Virus record (IMG/VR): IMGVR_UViG_3300037466_001900
Span: 1,608-65,607 of that record
Direction: 5' to 3' (one strand)
From: a virus
Taxonomy: Duplodnaviria; Caudoviricetes
Length of the DNA: 64,000 bases
The first letter of the stretch is position 1; every line of letters starts with the position of its first letter. The notes beneath the pieces are model-generated. The model saw only the letters and a program-made list of their open reading frames with translations, had not been told where the DNA came from and ran no database searches. Of the stretch, positions 16,935 to 28,668 are shown piece by piece. The position numbers and the translations under genes were made by a program.

Positions 16935-17039
16935 CTGCGTGTGCTCCGTGGACGGAGACGACGGGTGCGGGCTCCGCCTATGGTCCGATACCCCGGGAAA
17001 GCCCGTGATTTTCCTTAGTCCAGGGAAAACTTCAGATTA

Positions 17040-17498
17040 CTATGCCCTTAGCTGAAGCTGCTCCTTGGGTAATTGGATAAGCTCCCTTCCCGCCCTACGC
17101 CACCATTCGATCGCATCCGGATGTGGGTAGATTTCCCGGCAGACAATTCGTTTCGCCGAGGTGCCTAGCAAAAGCTTGACACAGGACAGGCACGGAGAGG
17201 CGGTCACGTAAACCGTGTCGACCTTCCACGGGTCGCTGAGCAGCAAGCAGGCGTTCTGCTCTGCATGTATGGCCTCGCACTTGTCGAGGCCTTCGCCCGA
17301 CCCATACGTTGCGCCTGGGCAAGGTTCGCCTTCCGAACAGTGGGGGCGACCGCTAGCCGGCCCATTGTAGCCGGTAGCCATGATCCTCCCCCTAGCATCA
17401 ACTATAACGCACCCAACCTGGCGTCGGGGGCATGTGCCGCGCTGTGCAATGGTCTCGGCGACCCTAAGCCACGTTTCATCCCTCGAAGGTCTTGTCAT
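17040..17498 (-). CDS. dCMP deaminase
   Basis: HAE and PCLSC Zn motifs; CPRRQVGCVIV; ATGYNG. Confidence 0.92.
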   Translation of the reverse strand: MTRPSRDETWLRVAETIAQRGTCPRRQVGCVIVDARGRIMATGYNGPASGRPHCSEGEPCPGATYGSGEGLDKCEAIHAEQNACLLLSDPWKVDTVYVTASPCLSCVKLLLGTSAKRIVCREIYPHPDAIEWWRRAGRELIQLPKEQLQLRA

Positions 17499-17689
17499 AC
17501 CTCAATCCCAGAAGAGTTTTGCATACTCCTATACTCCTCAAAAAGCAGCCTAGGATTAGACCACCCACTGGACCACCATTGACGGGGTTCAGCCTCTGAG
17601 TAAGGGTTCATAGAATGCGAAAACCCGTCCAGATAGGCGTGTTGACCAGCAACGTAGAACTTCTTTCTCTCTTCTTCATTATAGGTCAT
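17495..17689 (-). CDS. Rmf/CrpP-fold-like small protein
   Basis: Start re-placed at ATG 17689; GQHAYLDG...NPY...WWSSGW pattern. Confidence 0.5.
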   Translation of the reverse strand: MTYNEEERKKFYVAGQHAYLDGFSHSMNPYSEAEPRQWWSSGWSNPRLLFEEYRSMQNSSGIEV

Positions 17690-19074
17690 ACTAAACCTCC
17701 TTTCAGCTCCGGGAACAAGGGACACTCGGCTCGGTGCCAACACATCTTGCAGGCACCCGCCTGGTTCGAATAGCCGCCGAGACGGCAGAAGTCCTCTTTG
17801 GCCTTAGTGACCTTGGGATTGGGCTTCAAGACCCTGTGGCCCGTGGTTATGAACGTGTCGCGATTTATGAACGCCTGGACTTGCTCAGCTACGTAGGTCG
17901 TGAACTGCAGGGGCATCGACTTGCCGGTCTGCTTGATCCCCCGCTGGCCATCTGAATTATAGGGTTCCCAGACTTCCCGACCAGGCCCCTCTTCGTCATG
18001 GTGGAACAGGAAGTCGTCGGGGAAACCCTGGATCGCCGCCCGTTCCCGCACAGACAGTGGAGAGCGCCGGATGGGGTGAATGGGATTGTAGCCGCCTGAG
18101 AGAACTGGACAGAAGCCCTCCCACTTGGGATTAGTCGTTCCAGGGCGAACCTTCTGTTCACCTGCCGGCGAATAGTACTTCAGGTTCTTACCCCAGTCAC
18201 CCGTCTTGAACAATTCGCTGAGTTCACCCCAGCTAGACCGTTCGCCATACCATCGCATATTGACGTATCGGCCTGGAACATATGTAGGGTCGACAAACGC
18301 GTGATTTGGAACACCGCCGGCGGGCACATCGAGGAAACGCCCGATAACATCCTTGAGAACCAAGCCATGCTCTTTCTCTCCTGGCACAAAAACGAAACCT
18401 TCGGATTTCTTGGCCCCGATGATGAACATCCGGTTTCGGTGCTTCTGGATATTGCCGTAACCCCAGTTGCTGATCCACTCAGGGAAGAGATCGTAGTCAG
18501 GAAGCATCCTGACATATTCGCTCATGGGCAATGGGATAAAACTATCGGGCAGGTCGTCCATCAAGAAGAAGCGCGGCTGGAGCTCGGCTACCAGTTTAAG
18601 GAAGAGCGGGAGGTCCGAGACATCCTCTCCTCGCGTTGCCTGATACTCCCCGTTACCTGCAACGACTGAATGTGAGAGCGAGGAATAGCGTCCACACTCA
18701 GGATGACCAAGGGCCAGGTCGATAGACCCTGGCAACATGTTCTTGGGAACATCATCCAGTCCTCGAGCATTGAAGGCACCGGGAAAGTAATTACAGAAAG
18801 TCGAGTCACCGGTCTGTCTCCTGAACCTATAGTAGTCGCGCCACTCGATATTGCCAACGACCTTATAGCCCAAGAGGTGCGGTCCGATCAGCATCGAGCC
18901 GACGCCGCTGGTTATTCCGAACGCCGTGAGCGGCCGCATGCTGGGCAGTTCGCCGACTGGCTCCTGGAACACTGGCATTCGCTTATACTTGGCCATAGTC
19001 GGCTTATCGAGGAGCCCGAACCGCTCCTCGATCGAGTCGGCCTTTCTATGTTGCCACGTTGCTGATTTAGACAT
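17686..19074 (-). CDS. Divergent C5-cytosine DNA methyltransferase-like enzyme
   Basis: Motifs in order: I (TSGVGS), IV (HPECGRYS, Cys127), VI (DDL for ENV), VIII (QKHRNRMFIIG), IX (REraAIQGFPDDF), X (QTGKSMP, Lys385); C-terminal Cys cluster. Confidence 0.85.
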   Translation of the reverse strand: MSKSATWQHRKADSIEERFGLLDKPTMAKYKRMPVFQEPVGELPSMRPLTAFGITSGVGSMLIGPHLLGYKVVGNIEWRDYYRFRRQTGDSTFCNYFPGAFNARGLDDVPKNMLPGSIDLALGHPECGRYSSLSHSVVAGNGEYQATRGEDVSDLPLFLKLVAELQPRFFLMDDLPDSFIPLPMSEYVRMLPDYDLFPEWISNWGYGNIQKHRNRMFIIGAKKSEGFVFVPGEKEHGLVLKDVIGRFLDVPAGGVPNHAFVDPTYVPGRYVNMRWYGERSSWGELSELFKTGDWGKNLKYYSPAGEQKVRPGTTNPKWEGFCPVLSGGYNPIHPIRRSPLSVRERAAIQGFPDDFLFHHDEEGPGREVWEPYNSDGQRGIKQTGKSMPLQFTTYVAEQVQAFINRDTFITTGHRVLKPNPKVTKAKEDFCRLGGYSNQAGACKMCWHRAECPLFPELKGGLV

Positions 19075-19330
19075 CTTTCAAAACCTCCCTGGCATGTGTC
19101 AGGGGTAGGCTTTCCCCCGCATGGTAAACCTTATAGAAACCGTCGAGCTGTTGCTCGCATTTAGCAGTATGGTCGACAAGGAGCTCGAGGGCTTTACGAA
19201 GGCGAGCGGCCTTCTCGGCGGCCAGGATAAACCCCTGAACCCGCTTGACCGCTTCGTAAGGCCCGTGGACGAACAGGCGGGTCGATCCGTCTCCCACCCC
19301 GATCGTGGTTTCATAATCAGCCACGACCAT
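19067..19330 (-). CDS. Hypothetical protein
   Basis: Coupled ORF inside the modification operon. Confidence 0.55.
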   Translation of the reverse strand: MVVADYETTIGVGDGSTRLFVHGPYEAVKRVQGFILAAEKAARLRKALELLVDHTAKCEQQLDGFYKVYHAGESLPLTHAREVLKDV

Positions 19331-19511
19331 GGACCTTTATGTAGACAAACCAGATAGGGGACAGAATAATGCAGGTCACAAAGGTCAGAGCCAGGACGAA
19401 CCAATTATGAGGTTCTCCTAGGATCTGGTCTTTGTGCTCTATAAAGTCAAAGACTGTAAGAGCGAACCCGCAAACTATCCAGGCAAATGCTATGGAGGAC
19501 AACAACGTCAT
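19317..19511 (-). CDS. Small two-TM membrane protein
   Basis: Two hydrophobic helices; ATGA overlap. Confidence 0.55.
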   Translation of the reverse strand: MTLLSSIAFAWIVCGFALTVFDFIEHKDQILGEPHNWFVLALTFVTCIILSPIWFVYIKVHGRG

Positions 19512-20224
19512 TGGTTTGCTCCATTCGTTTCGAGATCACCCTGATGGACGTAGCGAATATGAGCATGGTCCTTCACCAAGTCGTGGTGGTCGGGCGGCAT
19601 CCAGCCTTCGGGCTTCACTACGTCGAACGTCGAACCCCGCTTGGACTGGTCCGCGGTCTCGGCCCGGACCTTGGCCATGTTAGCCGCCTGAACGCGCTTC
19701 CACGCTTCATGGAAGATTGTTGGTCCAAACTGGAGATAGGCAGCTCCCAGGACGACGTAGGTTAGATCGACGAGAGCGTCGAGCTGCTGATGAAGCCCCA
19801 TTGCGATCCTGCGATGGTCAGGCTTCCCGTCGTCCGAGGTGAGCGCCTCAACTAAGCCTTCCTGCTCGGTCTCCCACTCCTCGAACTCCTCTCGAATGAA
19901 CTTGCTCCGGAAGTCGAAGAGTTCAGGCTCCAAGATCCTGGGCTTACCAACATACTCAAGGCCGAACTTCTGGTGGAATGCAGCAATGTCCAGCATGAGG
20001 TGCGGGGCTTCGGCTCCAGTAACGTGAAGGCCTTTCTTGATCATCTCGGACTGGGCCTTCAGGACCTCGGTCACGTACGACATGGGACCTGGCCCAAGCC
20101 TCCTACCCGCAGCGTTGGCCGCCGAGACCATCATTCGGACTACTCCCTCAGCTTCCTCGAGCTTGAACTCGAAGACAACTTCTTCACCTTGCTCATCAGC
20201 AACCTTAAGTTCTTCCGTAATCAT
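19508..20224 (-). CDS. MazG-like/PRA-PH nucleotide pyrophosphohydrolase (dUTPase/dCTPase-like)
   Basis: FHQKFG, IREEFEE, DALVDLTYVVLG, VQAANMAKV, VVKPEGW.PPD motifs. Confidence 0.85.
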   Translation of the reverse strand: MITEELKVADEQGEEVVFEFKLEEAEGVVRMMVSAANAAGRRLGPGPMSYVTEVLKAQSEMIKKGLHVTGAEAPHLMLDIAAFHQKFGLEYVGKPRILEPELFDFRSKFIREEFEEWETEQEGLVEALTSDDGKPDHRRIAMGLHQQLDALVDLTYVVLGAAYLQFGPTIFHEAWKRVQAANMAKVRAETADQSKRGSTFDVVKPEGWMPPDHHDLVKDHAHIRYVHQGDLETNGANQ

Positions 20225-21537
20225 TGTTCCACCTCCGATATGAATGCGTCTACTAACTCAATCCTGTATCCTATGCCGCCGGTCTTCACCGCCTCGGTCT
20301 TCAGCGGGTGCTTCGCTCGGTTTATGATCCGATCGGGGACGACACCTTTGAAAGCACGCTTTAACGCCTGCTTCTGGGTGCGCATCTCTCGGGGGAGCGA
20401 GAGCCCGTGGGCAATGACCGCCGGCGCCAAGTAAGGCGACCTAAGCTCGATTGTCTCCTTCATCATCACTCGATCGAGCCGTGGCAAGTGGTAATATGGA
20501 AGCTCGCAGAAAACATCCGACCATTGACTATCGTATTCCGCAGCCCGTCTATAGCCGCCAAACACTTCGTCTGCGCCATCCCCAGTCAAGCACACATTGT
20601 AACCCGCGGCCGATACCGCCTTAGCCAGTTGGACCTGTGGAACCAGGGAACCCAGGTCGAGAGGAGCCTGCATAATCCGAACGGCCTCCCTCATGGTTGG
20701 GGGCCGAGTGAAGGATGAGAAGTTATCGAGAAGCGTGACCTCGGGTGGTAGGAATTCACCTTCACCATTCTCAACCGAGAAAGCGTCGACTTCCCTGCCC
20801 AGTATATCCTTTAGGGTGTAATAGATGATCGACGAGTCAAGGCCGCCCGATAGAAGGAGGGCGACAGGAAGCTCGCCGATAAGCCGGTTCTCGATCGCCT
20901 GGGTAACTGCATCACGGAGGTATCCAGCCTGGGGCACCATCCACCACTTCCAATAGGTCTCTTCATGGATACCTATATCACTAACCGTGATCCTGGTGCC
21001 AGGCCGCATCTGAACGATGCCTTCATAAGGTGTTCGACCTGAGTAGTCGTATCCCCACTTAATGCAGTTGGCAAGGTAGGTCTGGTCAAAAGCCGGCCGA
21101 CGCTGAAGCATGAACATAGGTTCTAGCTCGGAACAGAAGATCCTGTACTTCGGCCAGAAATACATCGGCTTGATGCCGAGGTGGTCAGTGTAAACCGTAG
21201 CCCCATATTTCGTAACTGAGGCTGCGGCCCAGAACCCGTCCGTGTTATGGAAAACGGCTTCGTCGACTAGAGCGGAAAGCAAGTGCATCTGCTCTCCAGC
21301 CTGGTGGTTGAAGAATTCCCCTACAAAGCCGTAAAGGCTAGATCGCCCTTCAAAAGGCTGGTTAGCATCTTCCGTCCTATCCTGAATAGCCAACCGAACG
21401 TGAGCGAAAGTCCAGCCAGCAAAATTCTTGGCTGAAACATGACCCTTCTCTCCATCGCCCCTATGGCTCATAGCAGCCAAGGCGAGCTCAATCTGTTCAG
21501 GCAGATATGTTGACGGGGTTAGGAGGACGCCGCACAT
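20221..21537 (-). CDS. Asparagine-synthetase-like glutamine amidotransferase (Ntn GATase plus PP-loop), compact 438 aa
   Basis: N-terminal MCG, RLAIQD, GEFFN, D.LGIKP, SGGLDSS, GDGADEVFGGY, ELRSPYL. Confidence 0.88.
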   Translation of the reverse strand: MCGVLLTPSTYLPEQIELALAAMSHRGDGEKGHVSAKNFAGWTFAHVRLAIQDRTEDANQPFEGRSSLYGFVGEFFNHQAGEQMHLLSALVDEAVFHNTDGFWAAASVTKYGATVYTDHLGIKPMYFWPKYRIFCSELEPMFMLQRRPAFDQTYLANCIKWGYDYSGRTPYEGIVQMRPGTRITVSDIGIHEETYWKWWMVPQAGYLRDAVTQAIENRLIGELPVALLLSGGLDSSIIYYTLKDILGREVDAFSVENGEGEFLPPEVTLLDNFSSFTRPPTMREAVRIMQAPLDLGSLVPQVQLAKAVSAAGYNVCLTGDGADEVFGGYRRAAEYDSQWSDVFCELPYYHLPRLDRVMMKETIELRSPYLAPAVIAHGLSLPREMRTQKQALKRAFKGVVPDRIINRAKHPLKTEAVKTGGIGYRIELVDAFISEVEQ

Positions 21538-22064
21538 TTAATTTTCTCCAACAAGTTCTCATAGCTGTCACTTGGCCATGAGTAATGCACAATAGGCACT
21601 AGGCCCGAGAGGGAGCTAATCCTTCGGTCATACGCATTCACGATCGCCGGGTAATTCTTGAGGACCCAGTCGAGGTGGTCCTGAGACTTGTGGGACTTTA
21701 CCGCCATGGAGATGTGCGAGTGCATGAACTTCGCCGACCCCGCTTTGCAGTAGACCAACACCAGGCCGAGCTCCTGGACCTCCCTGTCCAATCGGTATAG
21801 CGGCTCGTAAAGGTCCCGGCCCATCAGAGGCCCATAAACGGTTTCGCTGATCTGAGGTAAGCGATCAACCAGGACGGTCTCACCCCGATCGGCCCGCCAT
21901 TTACAGTCCCATATGATCTGGAGCTTGGCATCCCACGCCTCCCGATCCTTGGGAGGTCCCCCACTGTGGCTTACCTCAACGTCAAAGGTCTCGGCCAGCT
22001 TGGCTAGAAGGGTCGACTTCCCCGACCCGTCCGGGCCTTCAACTACGATCATCCTTCGCTGCAT
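21519..22064 (-). CDS. P-loop deoxynucleoside monophosphate kinase
   Basis: IVVEGPDGSGKST Walker A, LVDR motif; start re-placed at ATG 22064. Confidence 0.82.
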   Translation of the reverse strand: MQRRMIVVEGPDGSGKSTLLAKLAETFDVEVSHSGGPPKDREAWDAKLQIIWDCKWRADRGETVLVDRLPQISETVYGPLMGRDLYEPLYRLDREVQELGLVLVYCKAGSAKFMHSHISMAVKSHKSQDHLDWVLKNYPAIVNAYDRRISSLSGLVPIVHYSWPSDSYENLLEKIKCAASS

Positions 22065-22830
22065 CTTCCCTCCCCTTCTCCCATGCGGTGACTGCCACCG
22101 GAGCAACTAACGCAGCCAGGTTTTTCATAGCCCTGGCGTAGACCTGGATTTCATATTGTGCGTGTGGGTCATCCCGGAGTGTCAAGAACCGGAAGAGGTT
22201 CAACAAGTTGACCGTAGCAAACATGTGACTGTAGGTATTGACCGGCAGGACCGATCGAGCGAGCTCCCGGGGCCAGCCGTTTAAAAGTAGCCGGCGATAA
22301 AGATCGAAGGCATCTTCGCAGTGTTCGCGAAGCATCTCAACCTCCCGCTCTCGAGCCTGGAGGTTATCAAGGTTTTCGCCTCCTACCTCCCTGGCCTGTT
22401 TGTTGCTCGTCGACTGACGCCCAATCAAGGCCGGATTAGGGACATAGAATTCAGTCGGCAATTCCCGATAGCGGGCCGACAGCTCATTGTATCCCCAAGT
22501 GCGGTGACGATGCCACTGGCGAAAGACAAAGATGGGGGCCTTCACCTCAAAGGTCAGGGTGACCGCCTCGAATGGGGATGTGTGGCTATGTTTCCACAGA
22601 TAGTTGATTAACCGCTGATCGCTACCTTCGTCTTCGCCGGCTCGCCAGGCAGCGTCGTACGATACGCGGGCCGCTCGAACGATTGAGATGTCACCACCCA
22701 TGAAATCGACGAGCCGGACGAAGCCGTAGTCAAGGCAATTGATGACCCCCGTCGATCGGTTTTTCTGGAATACCGATCCGGCACCTTCTGATAGGTCGTG
22801 ATAGCGGCTTTCCGCTTCTTGGTCTGTCAT
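22039..22830 (-). CDS. thyX: Flavin-dependent thymidylate synthase
   Basis: RHRTWGYNELSAR signature, HTSPFE, AQYEIQ.YA. Confidence 0.95.
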   Translation of the reverse strand: MTDQEAESRYHDLSEGAGSVFQKNRSTGVINCLDYGFVRLVDFMGGDISIVRAARVSYDAAWRAGEDEGSDQRLINYLWKHSHTSPFEAVTLTFEVKAPIFVFRQWHRHRTWGYNELSARYRELPTEFYVPNPALIGRQSTSNKQAREVGGENLDNLQAREREVEMLREHCEDAFDLYRRLLLNGWPRELARSVLPVNTYSHMFATVNLLNLFRFLTLRDDPHAQYEIQVYARAMKNLAALVAPVAVTAWEKGREDAAKDDRS

Positions 22831-23036
22831 CGAATAGCCTCCTCCGAATTGTCCCTATAGTTTATCCAAAAACCTCCATTAGTAATGCTTACCCGAGGCT
22901 GCGGAAAAAGATCGCTGGGGATATGCGCACAGTTAGCATCCAGGATCAAGGAGACTATAGCCGCCCCACCGTCGTCCATGTCATAATTCGCAGGGATACC
23001 TACGCTATGGTGGAAACAGTTAGGTTCGTCTTGCAT
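22827..23036 (-). CDS. Hypothetical protein
   Basis: Coupled small ORF. Confidence 0.45.
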   Translation of the reverse strand: MQDEPNCFHHSVGIPANYDMDDGGAAIVSLILDANCAHIPSDLFPQPRVSITNGGFWINYRDNSEEAIR

Positions 23037-24327
23037 TCGCGTACTCCTTTACCATGGAAAGGACGGTGGCCTGGGAAATCTTCTTCGCCTCCAAAACTTC
23101 TAAGAGGAGGTCGTCCACCGTATCAACTGCTCGGAGGAAATGAAACACCGGCAGAGTAATTTGTCCTTGGCGGTCGATCCGCGCTCGGGTCTGGGCCATC
23201 TGCTCGAATGAGAACGAGGCCGAATAGATAACCATCGTGTGCGAGCCATACTGCAAATTAAGCCCATGCCCGCCCGATTGGGGATGGAGGAACAACAACG
23301 GTATTTCCTTGTTGTCCCACTCCTTCTGGGTCCAGCCCTTCTCCAAAGAAACCCCGTGAGGGAATTTCTTCTTTAAGGCAGCAAGTTCGTGCTGGAAGTG
23401 GTAGACCACAATGACGGGTGAACCAGTTCCTTCCAGGATCATCTCAAGGGCATCTAGCTTCCCAGTATGAATTTGCTTCACTTCATGGTCGTCGTCGTAT
23501 ACAAAGCCGCTAGCAACTTGTCGCAACTTCATTAGCGCGGCCGCAGCATTAACAGCGGTGATAGTCTTCTCCTTGCCCAGGTCGACAAAGGCCCGGCGCT
23601 CCATCTCCTTGTAGATCTTCCTAGCGGCTAGAGGAAGCTCAATGTCGATGATGTTCTCGATCGGTTTTTCCGCCGAGGCCTCCAGCTCAACTCGGAAGAT
23701 CAAGTCACTGATAATCTTGGTGACCTTTTCAGTTGCCCCCTCTCGAGGTCCGAACTTGTAGCCCATATAGTCGAGCTGCTCGAAAAACTTAGACTTGAAC
23801 CGAAAGAAGGCTGTGTCGAGGCGTTGGCCAAGATCCAGGATGAAGATCTGGCTCCAGAGGTCCATTAGTGAGTTAGGGTTTGGCGTCCCTGTATAGATGT
23901 TCCTCCGCTCAAAGTGCTTCAGGTATTTACGCAGCTTCTTGAACCGTTTAGTCGACGGGTTCTTGAACATGGAAGACTCATCGATCGCCAGGACCTTAAA
24001 GGTCCGCGCTTCGAGGGCTTCGGGCAGGAGCTCGGGGTTCACCAAGTAAATGTCCGCTTCGGCTTCCAGGGCCTCACTCCGTTCGCGGGGCGACCCTCTA
24101 ACAAGGGAGAAGGTGAGCCCCTTGGTCATATCCCATTTCTTAGCTTCGGTCTCCCACACGGTTTCGATGACCATGATCGGGCCAACCAGGATGATGGGCT
24201 TAGGAAAGTCTACGAACGCGTGGAGGGCGATCGCGGTCTTGCCCAGCCCCATGTCAATGAAGAGACCAGCGTGGGGGTGGGCCTTGAGATATTCTACCCC
24301 TTCAACCTGATAGTCTCGGAGCTTCAT
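23020..24327 (-). CDS. SNF2-family helicase
   Basis: LRDYQ, DMGLGKT, DESS, TGTP, HPQSGGHGLNLQ, QTRARIDRQGQ. Confidence 0.92.
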   Translation of the reverse strand: MKLRDYQVEGVEYLKAHPHAGLFIDMGLGKTAIALHAFVDFPKPIILVGPIMVIETVWETEAKKWDMTKGLTFSLVRGSPRERSEALEAEADIYLVNPELLPEALEARTFKVLAIDESSMFKNPSTKRFKKLRKYLKHFERRNIYTGTPNPNSLMDLWSQIFILDLGQRLDTAFFRFKSKFFEQLDYMGYKFGPREGATEKVTKIISDLIFRVELEASAEKPIENIIDIELPLAARKIYKEMERRAFVDLGKEKTITAVNAAAALMKLRQVASGFVYDDDHEVKQIHTGKLDALEMILEGTGSPVIVVYHFQHELAALKKKFPHGVSLEKGWTQKEWDNKEIPLLFLHPQSGGHGLNLQYGSHTMVIYSASFSFEQMAQTRARIDRQGQITLPVFHFLRAVDTVDDLLLEVLEAKKISQATVLSMVKEYANARRT

Positions 24328-24758
24328 GGGTTGAGCTCCTTAACCCCTACTAGGATAGAAGGAGGGAGAGGGATATGTTGGTGAAGGGGCCGCCAAAGAT
24401 GGAGACAGAAAGGGTAGTTGTTTATATACTCTTTGACTGGGTGTAACTGCATCGCTACCTCATCGGGAAAGAAGAATAGGTCCTTGATGAAGTTCATTTC
24501 TTCCCAGGTTGGAGTTCGGTAAGGTAGCGACACACTCACGTGGTCCCAGTTAGCTCCGGCTTCATTGCGACCCCAGACCACCCCGCCTTTGCTGGCTATT
24601 ACTCGGAGCCCTACCTGTGGTACTTGCCGGCTAACTGGGTTTCTAGATGAGAAGGGGACGACGAAAGCTCCTGCATAATCACGTATGTCTGTAGGCACTT
24701 CGCCCATAGGGTGGGGAATACGAAACTTATCGAAACGGTTGTCGCTAAAGCTACGCAT
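24324..24758 (-). CDS. Conserved phage protein (DUF7694-like)
   Basis: WDHVSVS...PTWEEM..IKDLFF...CLHLW. Confidence 0.6.
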   Translation of the reverse strand: MRSFSDNRFDKFRIPHPMGEVPTDIRDYAGAFVVPFSSRNPVSRQVPQVGLRVIASKGGVVWGRNEAGANWDHVSVSLPYRTPTWEEMNFIKDLFFFPDEVAMQLHPVKEYINNYPFCLHLWRPLHQHIPLPPSILVGVKELNP

Positions 24759-28212: not shown

Positions 28213-28668
28213 CTATTCACCCTCCTGTGATGACATTGCTGCGATAGCTGCGCGGGGCGGTTCGGGAAGCGGCATCCAGTGGGTTACATTGTAGAGTAGC
28301 GCCTCGTCGCTCGGCTGTTCACCGTCAAAGATGGTGGCGCAGTGAACCCATGCGTCTCGCGTTCGCGACCACCAGCATCCAGCAACTCTTTCGTTCTCGT
28401 AGCGCTCCCTTTCGGCGGCCCAAAGATCGACGATTTTGTTCTTCGGCGCAGTTTCAATCGGCTGCCACCCAACAACCTCGTCAGTCACTACGGTAGGGCG
28501 GCGGTTCCAAGCTTCGGCACAAGCTGAAGGACTGCGCTGCGCCGGGTCTATGGTCACGCCGCAGTCGTCGTTGAGGCAGTGGACATTCCATAGTCCGCGA
28601 TAGCGCTCGAATAGTTCGCCCTCGCTTCCGCAATGAGCGCACGGCATCAGCTTCACTTCACCTGACAT
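28213..28668 (-). CDS. Lar-like restriction-alleviation Zn-ribbon fused to DUF551-like domain
   Basis: LMPCAHCG...C..C...EAWNRR; GWQPIETAPK...THWMPLPEPP. Confidence 0.7.
   Translation of the reverse strand: MSGEVKLMPCAHCGSEGELFERYRGLWNVHCLNDDCGVTIDPAQRSPSACAEAWNRRPTVVTDEVVGWQPIETAPKNKIVDLWAAERERYENERVAGCWWSRTRDAWVHCATIFDGEQPSDEALLYNVTHWMPLPEPPRAAIAAMSSQEGE

Follow-up and report, generated by a model that had tools for sequence, protein, structure and literature searches.

A lysine-type clade of phage DNA cytosine-C5 methyltransferase-fold enzymes with a rebuilt active-site pocket accompanies a predicted cytosine-modification cassette

In Synechococcus phage S-B43, the enzyme CmoX transfers a carboxymethyl group from carboxy-S-adenosylmethionine (carboxy-SAM), and Arg350 of CmoX binds the carboxylate (Yang et al., December 2025; PMC12783734). 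The donor is made by a phage-encoded CmoA, and CmoY, an asparagine-synthetase homolog, ligates glycine to the product; a second cluster of ligases with a glutaminase domain was predicted to use ammonia (PMC12783734). The change from Asn to a cationic residue in motif X is transferable to another methyltransferase, with M.MpeI N374K and M.CviPI variants accepting carboxy-SAM (PMC13288465). Here we describe P0001, a 462-residue C5-methyltransferase-like protein encoded on the minus strand (17686..19074) of a 64,000-nucleotide stretch of viral DNA (Caudoviricetes; positions 1,608 to 65,607 of IMG/VR record IMGVR_UViG_3300037466_001900), referred to below as the window. P0001 has the true fold of the DNA cytosine-C5 methyltransferases, with a C5/cofactor pocket that has been rebuilt, and it is an optional accessory of a conserved phage gene cassette that encodes a thymidylate synthase-like (TS-like) protein, an AsnB-like amidotransferase, a dCMP deaminase, a MazG-like protein and a dNMP kinase. 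To our knowledge, the motif X switch from Asn to a cation is the only determinant that turns DNA methyltransferases into carboxymethyltransferases. P0001 represents a natural Lys-type clade that bears this switch without a carboxy-SAM source, inside a widespread cassette that apparently replaces cytosine.

P0001 begins with an N-terminal extension (residues 1-46), followed by the core for catalysis and target recognition (47-407) and by a Cys-rich C-terminal tail. Residues 55-399 match positions 7-322 of the 324-position Pfam DNA_methylase profile (PF00145) above threshold (E 7e-9), and the protein scores 24 bits against TIGR00675, for which the cut-off is 100.65. The translation contains the methyltransferase motifs quoted in the initial annotation: motif I (GITSGVGSMLIG), motif IV (GHPECG, which includes Cys127), motif VI (FFLMDDLP, with Asp173 and Asp174), motif VIII (QKHRNRMF), motif IX (RERAAIQGFPDDF), and motif X (KQTGKSMP, with Gly384-Lys385 instead of Gly-Asn). 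The AlphaFold model of P0001 (predicted local distance difference test score 94.4) can be superposed over its whole length on M.HaeIII (Z 26.2) and M.HhaI (Z 24.3) in their DNA-bound forms, and its comparison with CmoX (8YF3) gave a Z of 24.3 with a root-mean-square deviation of 3.8 Å over 295 residues. Structural alignment with M.HhaI had been proposed in the initial annotation as a check on the position of the lysine. Residues 47-407 of the model align with residues 10-326 of the M.HhaI chain, so that K385 faces N304 provided that the last helix contains no gap.

The residue equivalences were examined further by profile alignment. An 88-sequence family profile served as the P0001 query for hhalign, which aligned it with the S-B43 enzyme (SpCmoX) at 98.5% probability (E 3e-15) and paired K385 with R350, C127 with C98, D173-D174-L175 with E-N-V, and G128 with S99. 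Lys385 (AAG codon, 17920..17922, minus strand) therefore occupies the position of the canonical motif X Asn and of CmoX Arg350, as originally predicted. The SpCmoX sequence in the S-B43 record (MN018232.1) shows SPPC at Cys98, and Arg350. The residues that contact adenosine in CmoX, Glu47, Phe48 and Asp69, correspond in the alignment to Glu77, Trp78 and Asp108 of P0001 (PMC12783734). In E. coli Dcm, N436 lies within a canonical FGNSV sequence; the hhalign alignment with Dcm covered the N-terminal half alone. Searches of PDB sequences by phmmer, with either whole P0001 or residues 330-410, gave alignments that stopped short of motif X.

Inspection of the active site shows that P0001 keeps nucleophilic Cys127, the motif VIII RxR, the target-recognition domain and the three adenosine contacts, and that the ENV position is still acidic. 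All residues required to activate a cytosine ring covalently through Cys-C6 and to bind an adenosyl cofactor are thus retained. The pocket itself is rebuilt: Lys385 replaces the motif X Asn, Gly128 replaces Gln, Glu126 replaces Pro, and Asp174 replaces Asn. Motif IV (Glu126-Cys127, 18694..18699, minus strand) thus reads HPEC-G rather than PPC-Q, with Glu in place of Pro before the preserved nucleophile and Gly in place of Gln after it. Motif VI (Asp173-Asp174, 18553..18558, minus strand) does read DDL instead of ENV, as first noted, and this is evident in both close-family conservation and the hhalign result; however, the change is less radical than it appears, because relatives read DNL or ENL, and Asp173 is a conservative substitute for the Glu of ENV. 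The C-terminal cluster recognized in the initial annotation is also present (C430-x11-C442-xx-C445-x5-C451; 17722..17787, minus strand) and, given the conservation of its Cys residues, is a probable zinc-binding tail.

P0001 differs from each of the characterized enzymes. It shares with M.HaeIII, M.HhaI, and E. coli Dcm (all PF00145) the two-domain fold, motifs I, VIII and IX, the catalytic Cys, and the adenosine-binding residues, but the motif IV Pro, motif VI Glu-Asn and motif X Asn are all replaced. The engineered M.MpeI N374K and M.CviPI variants (PMC13288465, PMC12015181) carry the same Asn-to-cationic change at the equivalent motif X residue; they are otherwise canonical (PC, ENV) and must be supplied with carboxy-SAM, whereas P0001 has several further altered pocket residues and no evident source of that donor. 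SpCmoX has the same fold, a cationic motif X residue and a small residue after the Cys, and it too is phage-encoded near an asparagine-synthetase homolog. Unlike SpCmoX, P0001 has Lys rather than Arg, HPEC rather than SPPC and DDL rather than ENV, together with the additional Cys4 tail and N-terminal extension, and sequence similarity between the two is marginal (profile E 8e-4).

Homolog searches recovered 437 relatives of P0001 and, separately, 286 clusters at 50% identity; all derive from metagenomes or viral contigs, and no isolated phage is among the sources. The family constitutes a separate clade, because these 286 clusters alone match P0001 (E <= 0.001) among 1.8 billion proteins. In 32 homologs with 45-89% identity, K385, E126, C127, D173, D174, C430, and C445 are invariant and C442 and C451 are at least 90% conserved; every family locus retrieved has K385 and E126 as well. 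The shortest of the distant relatives have no Cys cluster. When 88 members reaching down to 22% identity are compared, the invariant residues are limited to R79, C127, G128, P167, R213, and R215. Among the farther members, motif VI shifts from DDL through DNL to ENL, and residue 385 is mainly Lys or Arg and at times Asn, Gln, or Ala in the wider family. Several methyltransferase-like relatives contain inteins with Hint and homing-endonuclease domains (L031:10001-10963, L049, P0003, P0035, P0074, and P0078). These sit exactly at the catalytic Cys, which serves as the intein +1 residue, and their location indicates that Cys127 is critical. Three larger relatives (P0116, P0117, and P0120; about 760-780 residues) are fusion proteins that combine the methyltransferase-like domain with an N6/N4 DNA methylase domain (PF01555). 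The P0001 family is therefore a true clade of enzymes that is under selection and directed at DNA, rather than a chance feature of a single sequence; the full target-recognition domain and the N6/N4 methylase fusions suggest that it acts on DNA.

One assignment for such a protein would be an ordinary sequence-specific DNA methyltransferase that produces 5-methylcytosine for restriction evasion, its odd motifs being tolerated lineage drift. The complete fold, the intact adenosine contacts, Cys and RxR, and the canonical appearance of distant relatives with a motif X Asn are all consistent with this assignment. It is nevertheless unlikely: K385, E126 and G128 are strictly conserved, and the constant association with the TS-like cassette described below would be left unexplained. 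In addition, wild-type CmoX, with Arg at the same position, does not accept SAM (PMC12783734). The prediction in the initial annotation that P0001 is not a methyl transferase is thus a fair one as far as it draws on the altered pocket with its motif X cation; the carboxymethyl route that it attached to this, with carboxy-SAM as the donor, fared less well (see below).

The gene for P0001 lies among genes for nucleotide metabolism, all on the minus strand. The dCMP deaminase gene is at 17040..17498 (PF00383 E 1.4e-19; phrog_174 E 9e-47). On the other side are genes for a MazG-like NTP pyrophosphohydrolase, a candidate dCTPase/dUTPase (19508..20224; PF01503 E 3e-5; phrog_671 E 3.5e-21); P0268, an AsnB-like glutamine-dependent amidotransferase of 438 residues assigned by homology and by its Cys2 nucleophile and SGGLDSS PP-loop (20221..21537); a thymidylate kinase-like P-loop dNMP kinase whose gene overlaps that of P0268 (21519..22106; phrog_761 E 3.9e-14, with the TIGR00041 match confined to the P-loop); and the flavin-dependent thymidylate synthase ThyX (22039..22830; PF02511 E 1.5e-50). 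Further away is the gene for P0271 (29065..29949), a TS-like protein that is probably of the dCMP C5 hydroxymethylase type (phrog_160 E 4.6e-24). P0271 has no Pfam match. The region with its catalytic Cys and Asp reads RSCDYIRHFRDD, and it has Asp at the position of the uracil-specifying Asn177 of thymidylate synthase and of Asp179 in T4 gp42. The P0271 family profile is closest to the CMP hydroxymethylase MilA (1e-7), followed by T4 dCMP hydroxymethylase (4e-3), with canonical thymidylate synthases at 7e-3 or worse. The specificity Asp was found in 40/40 and 71/71 homologs in two sets. Homologs of P0271 in isolated Brevundimonas, Yersinia, Serratia, Pseudomonas, and Gordonia phages are labelled as thymidylate synthase.

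A precedent for such a gene set is phage T4, which replaces cytosine by means of the dCTPase gp56, the dCMP hydroxymethylase gp42, the dNMP kinase gp1, dCMP deaminase, and thymidylate synthase, and then tailors hydroxymethylcytosine with glucosyltransferases. From their sequences, the MazG-like, TS-like (Asp), thymidylate kinase-like, dCMP deaminase, and ThyX proteins of the window would be the respective counterparts. Relative to T4, the additional genes are those for the AsnB-like amidotransferase, which belongs to the core, and the methyltransferase-like protein, which is optional; the roles of both are predicted. Taken with the T4 parallel, this gene content makes it most likely that the cassette produces a 5-substituted dCTP carrying an amide group, which would replace dCTP.

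The occurrence of the cassette was surveyed from both the amidotransferase and the methyltransferase sides. Relatives of P0268 are encoded in more than 540 viral loci, and the best 80 of these (35-57% identity, full length) were analyzed. The N-terminal MCG (Cys2) was found in 77 of the 80 and the PP-loop in all of them, and their flanks contain a TS-like gene, often overlapping, and a dCMP deaminase gene. Where at least 4 kb was available on each side (n=34), a TS-like gene was present in 34/34 loci, dCMP deaminase in 31/34, MazG-like in 28/34 and a methyltransferase-like gene in only 6/34; one phage of 157 kb, complete in sequence, encodes the TS-like/AsnB-like pair and lacks PF00145 genes altogether. 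The TS-like (Asp), glutamine-dependent AsnB-like and dCMP deaminase genes thus form a widespread core (L136-L215), frequently overlapping, that extends to phages of 114-157 kb. Viewed from the P0001 family, an AsnB-like gene is directly upstream of the methyltransferase-like gene in all 29 loci that have upstream sequence, and a TS-like (Asp) gene is found in all 26 loci with enough flank. TS-like genes also directly adjoin methyltransferase-like relatives of 25-30% identity that lack the AsnB-like gene (L045 and L052). Because so few AsnB-like loci have a methyltransferase-like gene, and the complete 157-kb phage has none, P0001 does not supply the carboxylate substrate of the AsnB-like enzyme. 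The suggestion in the initial annotation that the neighboring amidotransferase could amidate the product of P0001 is not supported.

The position of the gene among kinase, MazG-like, dCMP deaminase, and ThyX genes would also be compatible with P0001 acting in the precursor pathway on free nucleotides (dCMP or a 5-substituted form) instead of DNA. We consider this the most improbable of the explanations weighed here. P0001 resembles DNA-bound M.HaeIII and M.HhaI over its whole length, including the target-recognition domain, fusions to DNA N6/N4 methylase domains occur among its relatives, and no enzyme with the C5-methyltransferase fold is known to use mononucleotides.

The closest described precedent implies a different reaction, in which carboxy-SAM provided by the host would be used to form 5-carboxymethylcytosine and the AsnB-like enzyme would amidate it to 5-carbamoylmethylcytosine. 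The alignment of K385 with CmoX R350 and the small residue after the Cys, as in CmoX, are consistent with this route, and a cationic residue at this position confers carboxy-SAM use in three systems (PMC12783734, PMC13288465). Operon architecture also offers a parallel to the AsnB-like gene that lies directly upstream in 29/29 loci of the P0001 family. In 46/80 loci of SpCmoX relatives (L057-L130), a 465-residue AsnB-like protein with an MCG N terminus, SGGIDS, and a glutaminase domain is encoded between CmoA and CmoX (Arg). It takes the place of the short glycine ligase CmoY in these cyanophage operons and presumably represents the ammonia-using ligase cluster predicted previously (PMC12783734). 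P0268 is nearer to these CmoX-linked proteins (127 bits) than to E. coli AsnB (72 bits); in reciprocal BLAST, the CmoX-linked proteins were nearer to E. coli AsnB, and orthology with P0268 was not shown.

Examination of the donor supply gave a contrasting result. A CmoA model was used in six-frame searches and, as a positive control, it identified the phage CmoA of S-B43 (E 2.5e-34). No CmoA was found in the complete 65.6-kb genome, which extends the absence originally noted for the window, or in five relatives, four of them at least 92% complete (0/6 genomes). CmoA was likewise found in 0/36 Lys-family loci, in contrast to 64/80 viral loci of close SpCmoX relatives. An alphaproteobacterium is the probable host. 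The clues are a tail module of the RcGTA type, related contigs binned with Sphingomicrobium, Azospirillum, and one further alphaproteobacterium, Brevundimonas phages as the source of the nearest isolated-phage homologs of the kit genes, and a rhizosphere metagenome as the probable source of the sequence. Only 5/151 genomes sampled from Alphaproteobacteria have CmoA above the curated cut-off, and none was found in three metagenome-assembled genomes (MAGs) carrying P0001 relatives. Carboxy-SAM is therefore unlikely to be available to P0001, since CmoA was not found in the phages or loci and is rare in the probable host class, and the earlier proposal of a donor drawn from the host loses its footing. 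The P0001 family thus differs from SpCmoX in that CmoA is never found alongside, a TS-like (Asp) gene is, and the AsnB-like neighbor is independent, occurring without a methyltransferase-like gene in 28/34 loci and in one complete genome. The SPPC motif is also absent, and the extra Glu next to the Cys would repel a carboxylate. Collectively, these results make the carboxymethyl route improbable, slightly more so than plain 5-methylcytosine formation.

The distribution of Glu126 points instead to the cassette. Glu126 was found in 30/30 AsnB-linked loci and is replaced by Pro, Ser, Lys or Asp in five relatives without an AsnB-like gene. This tracking suggests that the pocket covaries with the side chain made by the cassette. 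We give about an even chance to the view that P0001 is an accessory, post-replicative DNA enzyme of the cassette, with Cys127 as its nucleophile and a pocket that holds a polar C5 side chain. Once P0001 has flipped a cytosine-type base from the phage DNA, Cys127 would add to C6 of that base; the pocket, enlarged by Gly128 and charged by Lys385, Glu126, and Asp174, would accommodate a polar C5 side chain instead of a bare methyl group. Two outcomes can be envisaged. In the modestly favored one, P0001 would exchange or extend the side chain on cytosine that the cassette has already 5-substituted; in the other, unreplaced cytosines would receive an equivalent charged group from an adenosyl-sulfonium donor. 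The link between Glu126 and the AsnB-like gene is to be expected if the pocket reads the side chain made by the cassette. The specific reaction, Cys-C6 activation of an already 5-substituted (hydroxymethyl-derived) cytosine in phage DNA followed by exchange or extension of its side chain, is put forward tentatively, and we judge it somewhat unlikely in precisely this form. If true, it would be a biological counterpart of the in vitro derivatization of 5-hydroxymethylcytosine directed by methyltransferases, and would belong to a new cytosine hypermodification that bears an amide and draws on a T4-like kit for its precursors.

The fold, the residue equivalences, the conservation and the gene associations of P0001 are observed, whereas its substrate, donor and product are inferred. 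Several considerations weigh against this proposal. We know of no reaction that calls for an adenosyl cofactor together with Cys-C6 addition to a cytosine already substituted at C5, and the conserved adenosine pocket argues for a SAM-type donor, which classically needs an unsubstituted C5. The specificity of the MazG-like protein and the product of the TS-like protein are both predicted, and the cassette may replace only part of the cytosines. Near-canonical relatives, with a motif X Asn and ENL, also adjoin TS-like genes, no TS-like gene was detected near the distant relative L047, and the TS-like association could in part represent the shared module architecture of one phage lineage.

The adenosine pocket and the missing CmoA could also be reconciled by a SAM-dependent 3-amino-3-carboxypropyl (acp) transferase acting on C5 of unmodified cytosines, which would require no special donor. 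In this case, Lys385 would bind the α-carboxylate and Glu126 and Asp174 the α-ammonium, and the paired new acidic and basic residues fit a zwitterionic group. Transfer of acp has arisen on the class I methyltransferase fold, as in TYW2, and in diphthamide acp transfer is followed by amidation. We nevertheless regard acp transfer by P0001 as very unlikely. No precedent for it is known in the C5-methyltransferase family, the AsnB-like gene is independent of P0001, and Lys or Arg at position 385 is also common in relatives without Glu126.

CmoX, with Arg, is already a published example of a natural phage enzyme whose motif X residue is cationic. The literature searched contains no description of a Lys-type clade that combines HPEC and DDL motifs with a Cys4 tail, of the absence of CmoA from this clade, or of its dependence on the TS-like/AsnB-like cassette. 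The same searches returned nothing relevant on a phage pathway combining TS-like and asparagine-synthetase proteins, on natural Lys-type enzymes, or on phages PMBT14 and vB_YenM_P744, and the supplements of PMC12783734 mention no Lys variants and no host for A0A7T0Q3R0. Identification of the substrate would lead either to a donor or reaction that is new to the C5-methyltransferase fold or to a new base in phage DNA, and might yield new enzymes for DNA labelling and sequencing chemistry.

Relatives of this locus are scarce among isolated phages and sequenced bacteria. A megablast search with 17000-24400 gave no match among isolated phages, tblastn with P0001 found no isolated-phage relative above 26% identity, and tblastn of P0268 against isolated phages gave only a partial match in a Streptomyces phage. 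In public sequencing runs, matching Logan contigs came from two rhizosphere metagenomes only, of which one is probably where the sequence originated, and matches in bacterial genomes were limited to two phage contigs in genome bins and a decayed fragment in the chromosome of an alphaproteobacterial MAG. The fragment (L050:10001-10644, on a 2.78-Mb contig) is a frameshifted methyltransferase-like sequence covering residues 40-254 with no phage genes around it; it looks like a decayed chromosomal remnant, and offers a weak host clue rather than a prophage. Two isolated phages, Brevundimonas phage Strzyga and Yersinia phage P744, have the kit without the methyltransferase-like or AsnB-like gene. 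Both encode an unrelated protein of ~279 residues without a Pfam family between the NTP pyrophosphohydrolase and the TS-like protein (L053:8093-8932 and L135:6175-7008, respectively), labelled "pyrimidine hmase synthase" in one record, which may be an alternative tailoring or partner enzyme.

Two further reading frames in the window, both on the minus strand, were noted. An 82-residue open reading frame between the methyltransferase-like and dCMP deaminase genes (17495-17743) matches ribosome modulation factor below threshold (PF04957 E 7e-6; 26.4 bits, cut-off 27.9). The other (28213-28668) encodes a Lar restriction-alleviation domain (PF14354, E 1.4e-9) together with DUF551, and these domain matches point to a possible second anti-restriction function in the same phage.

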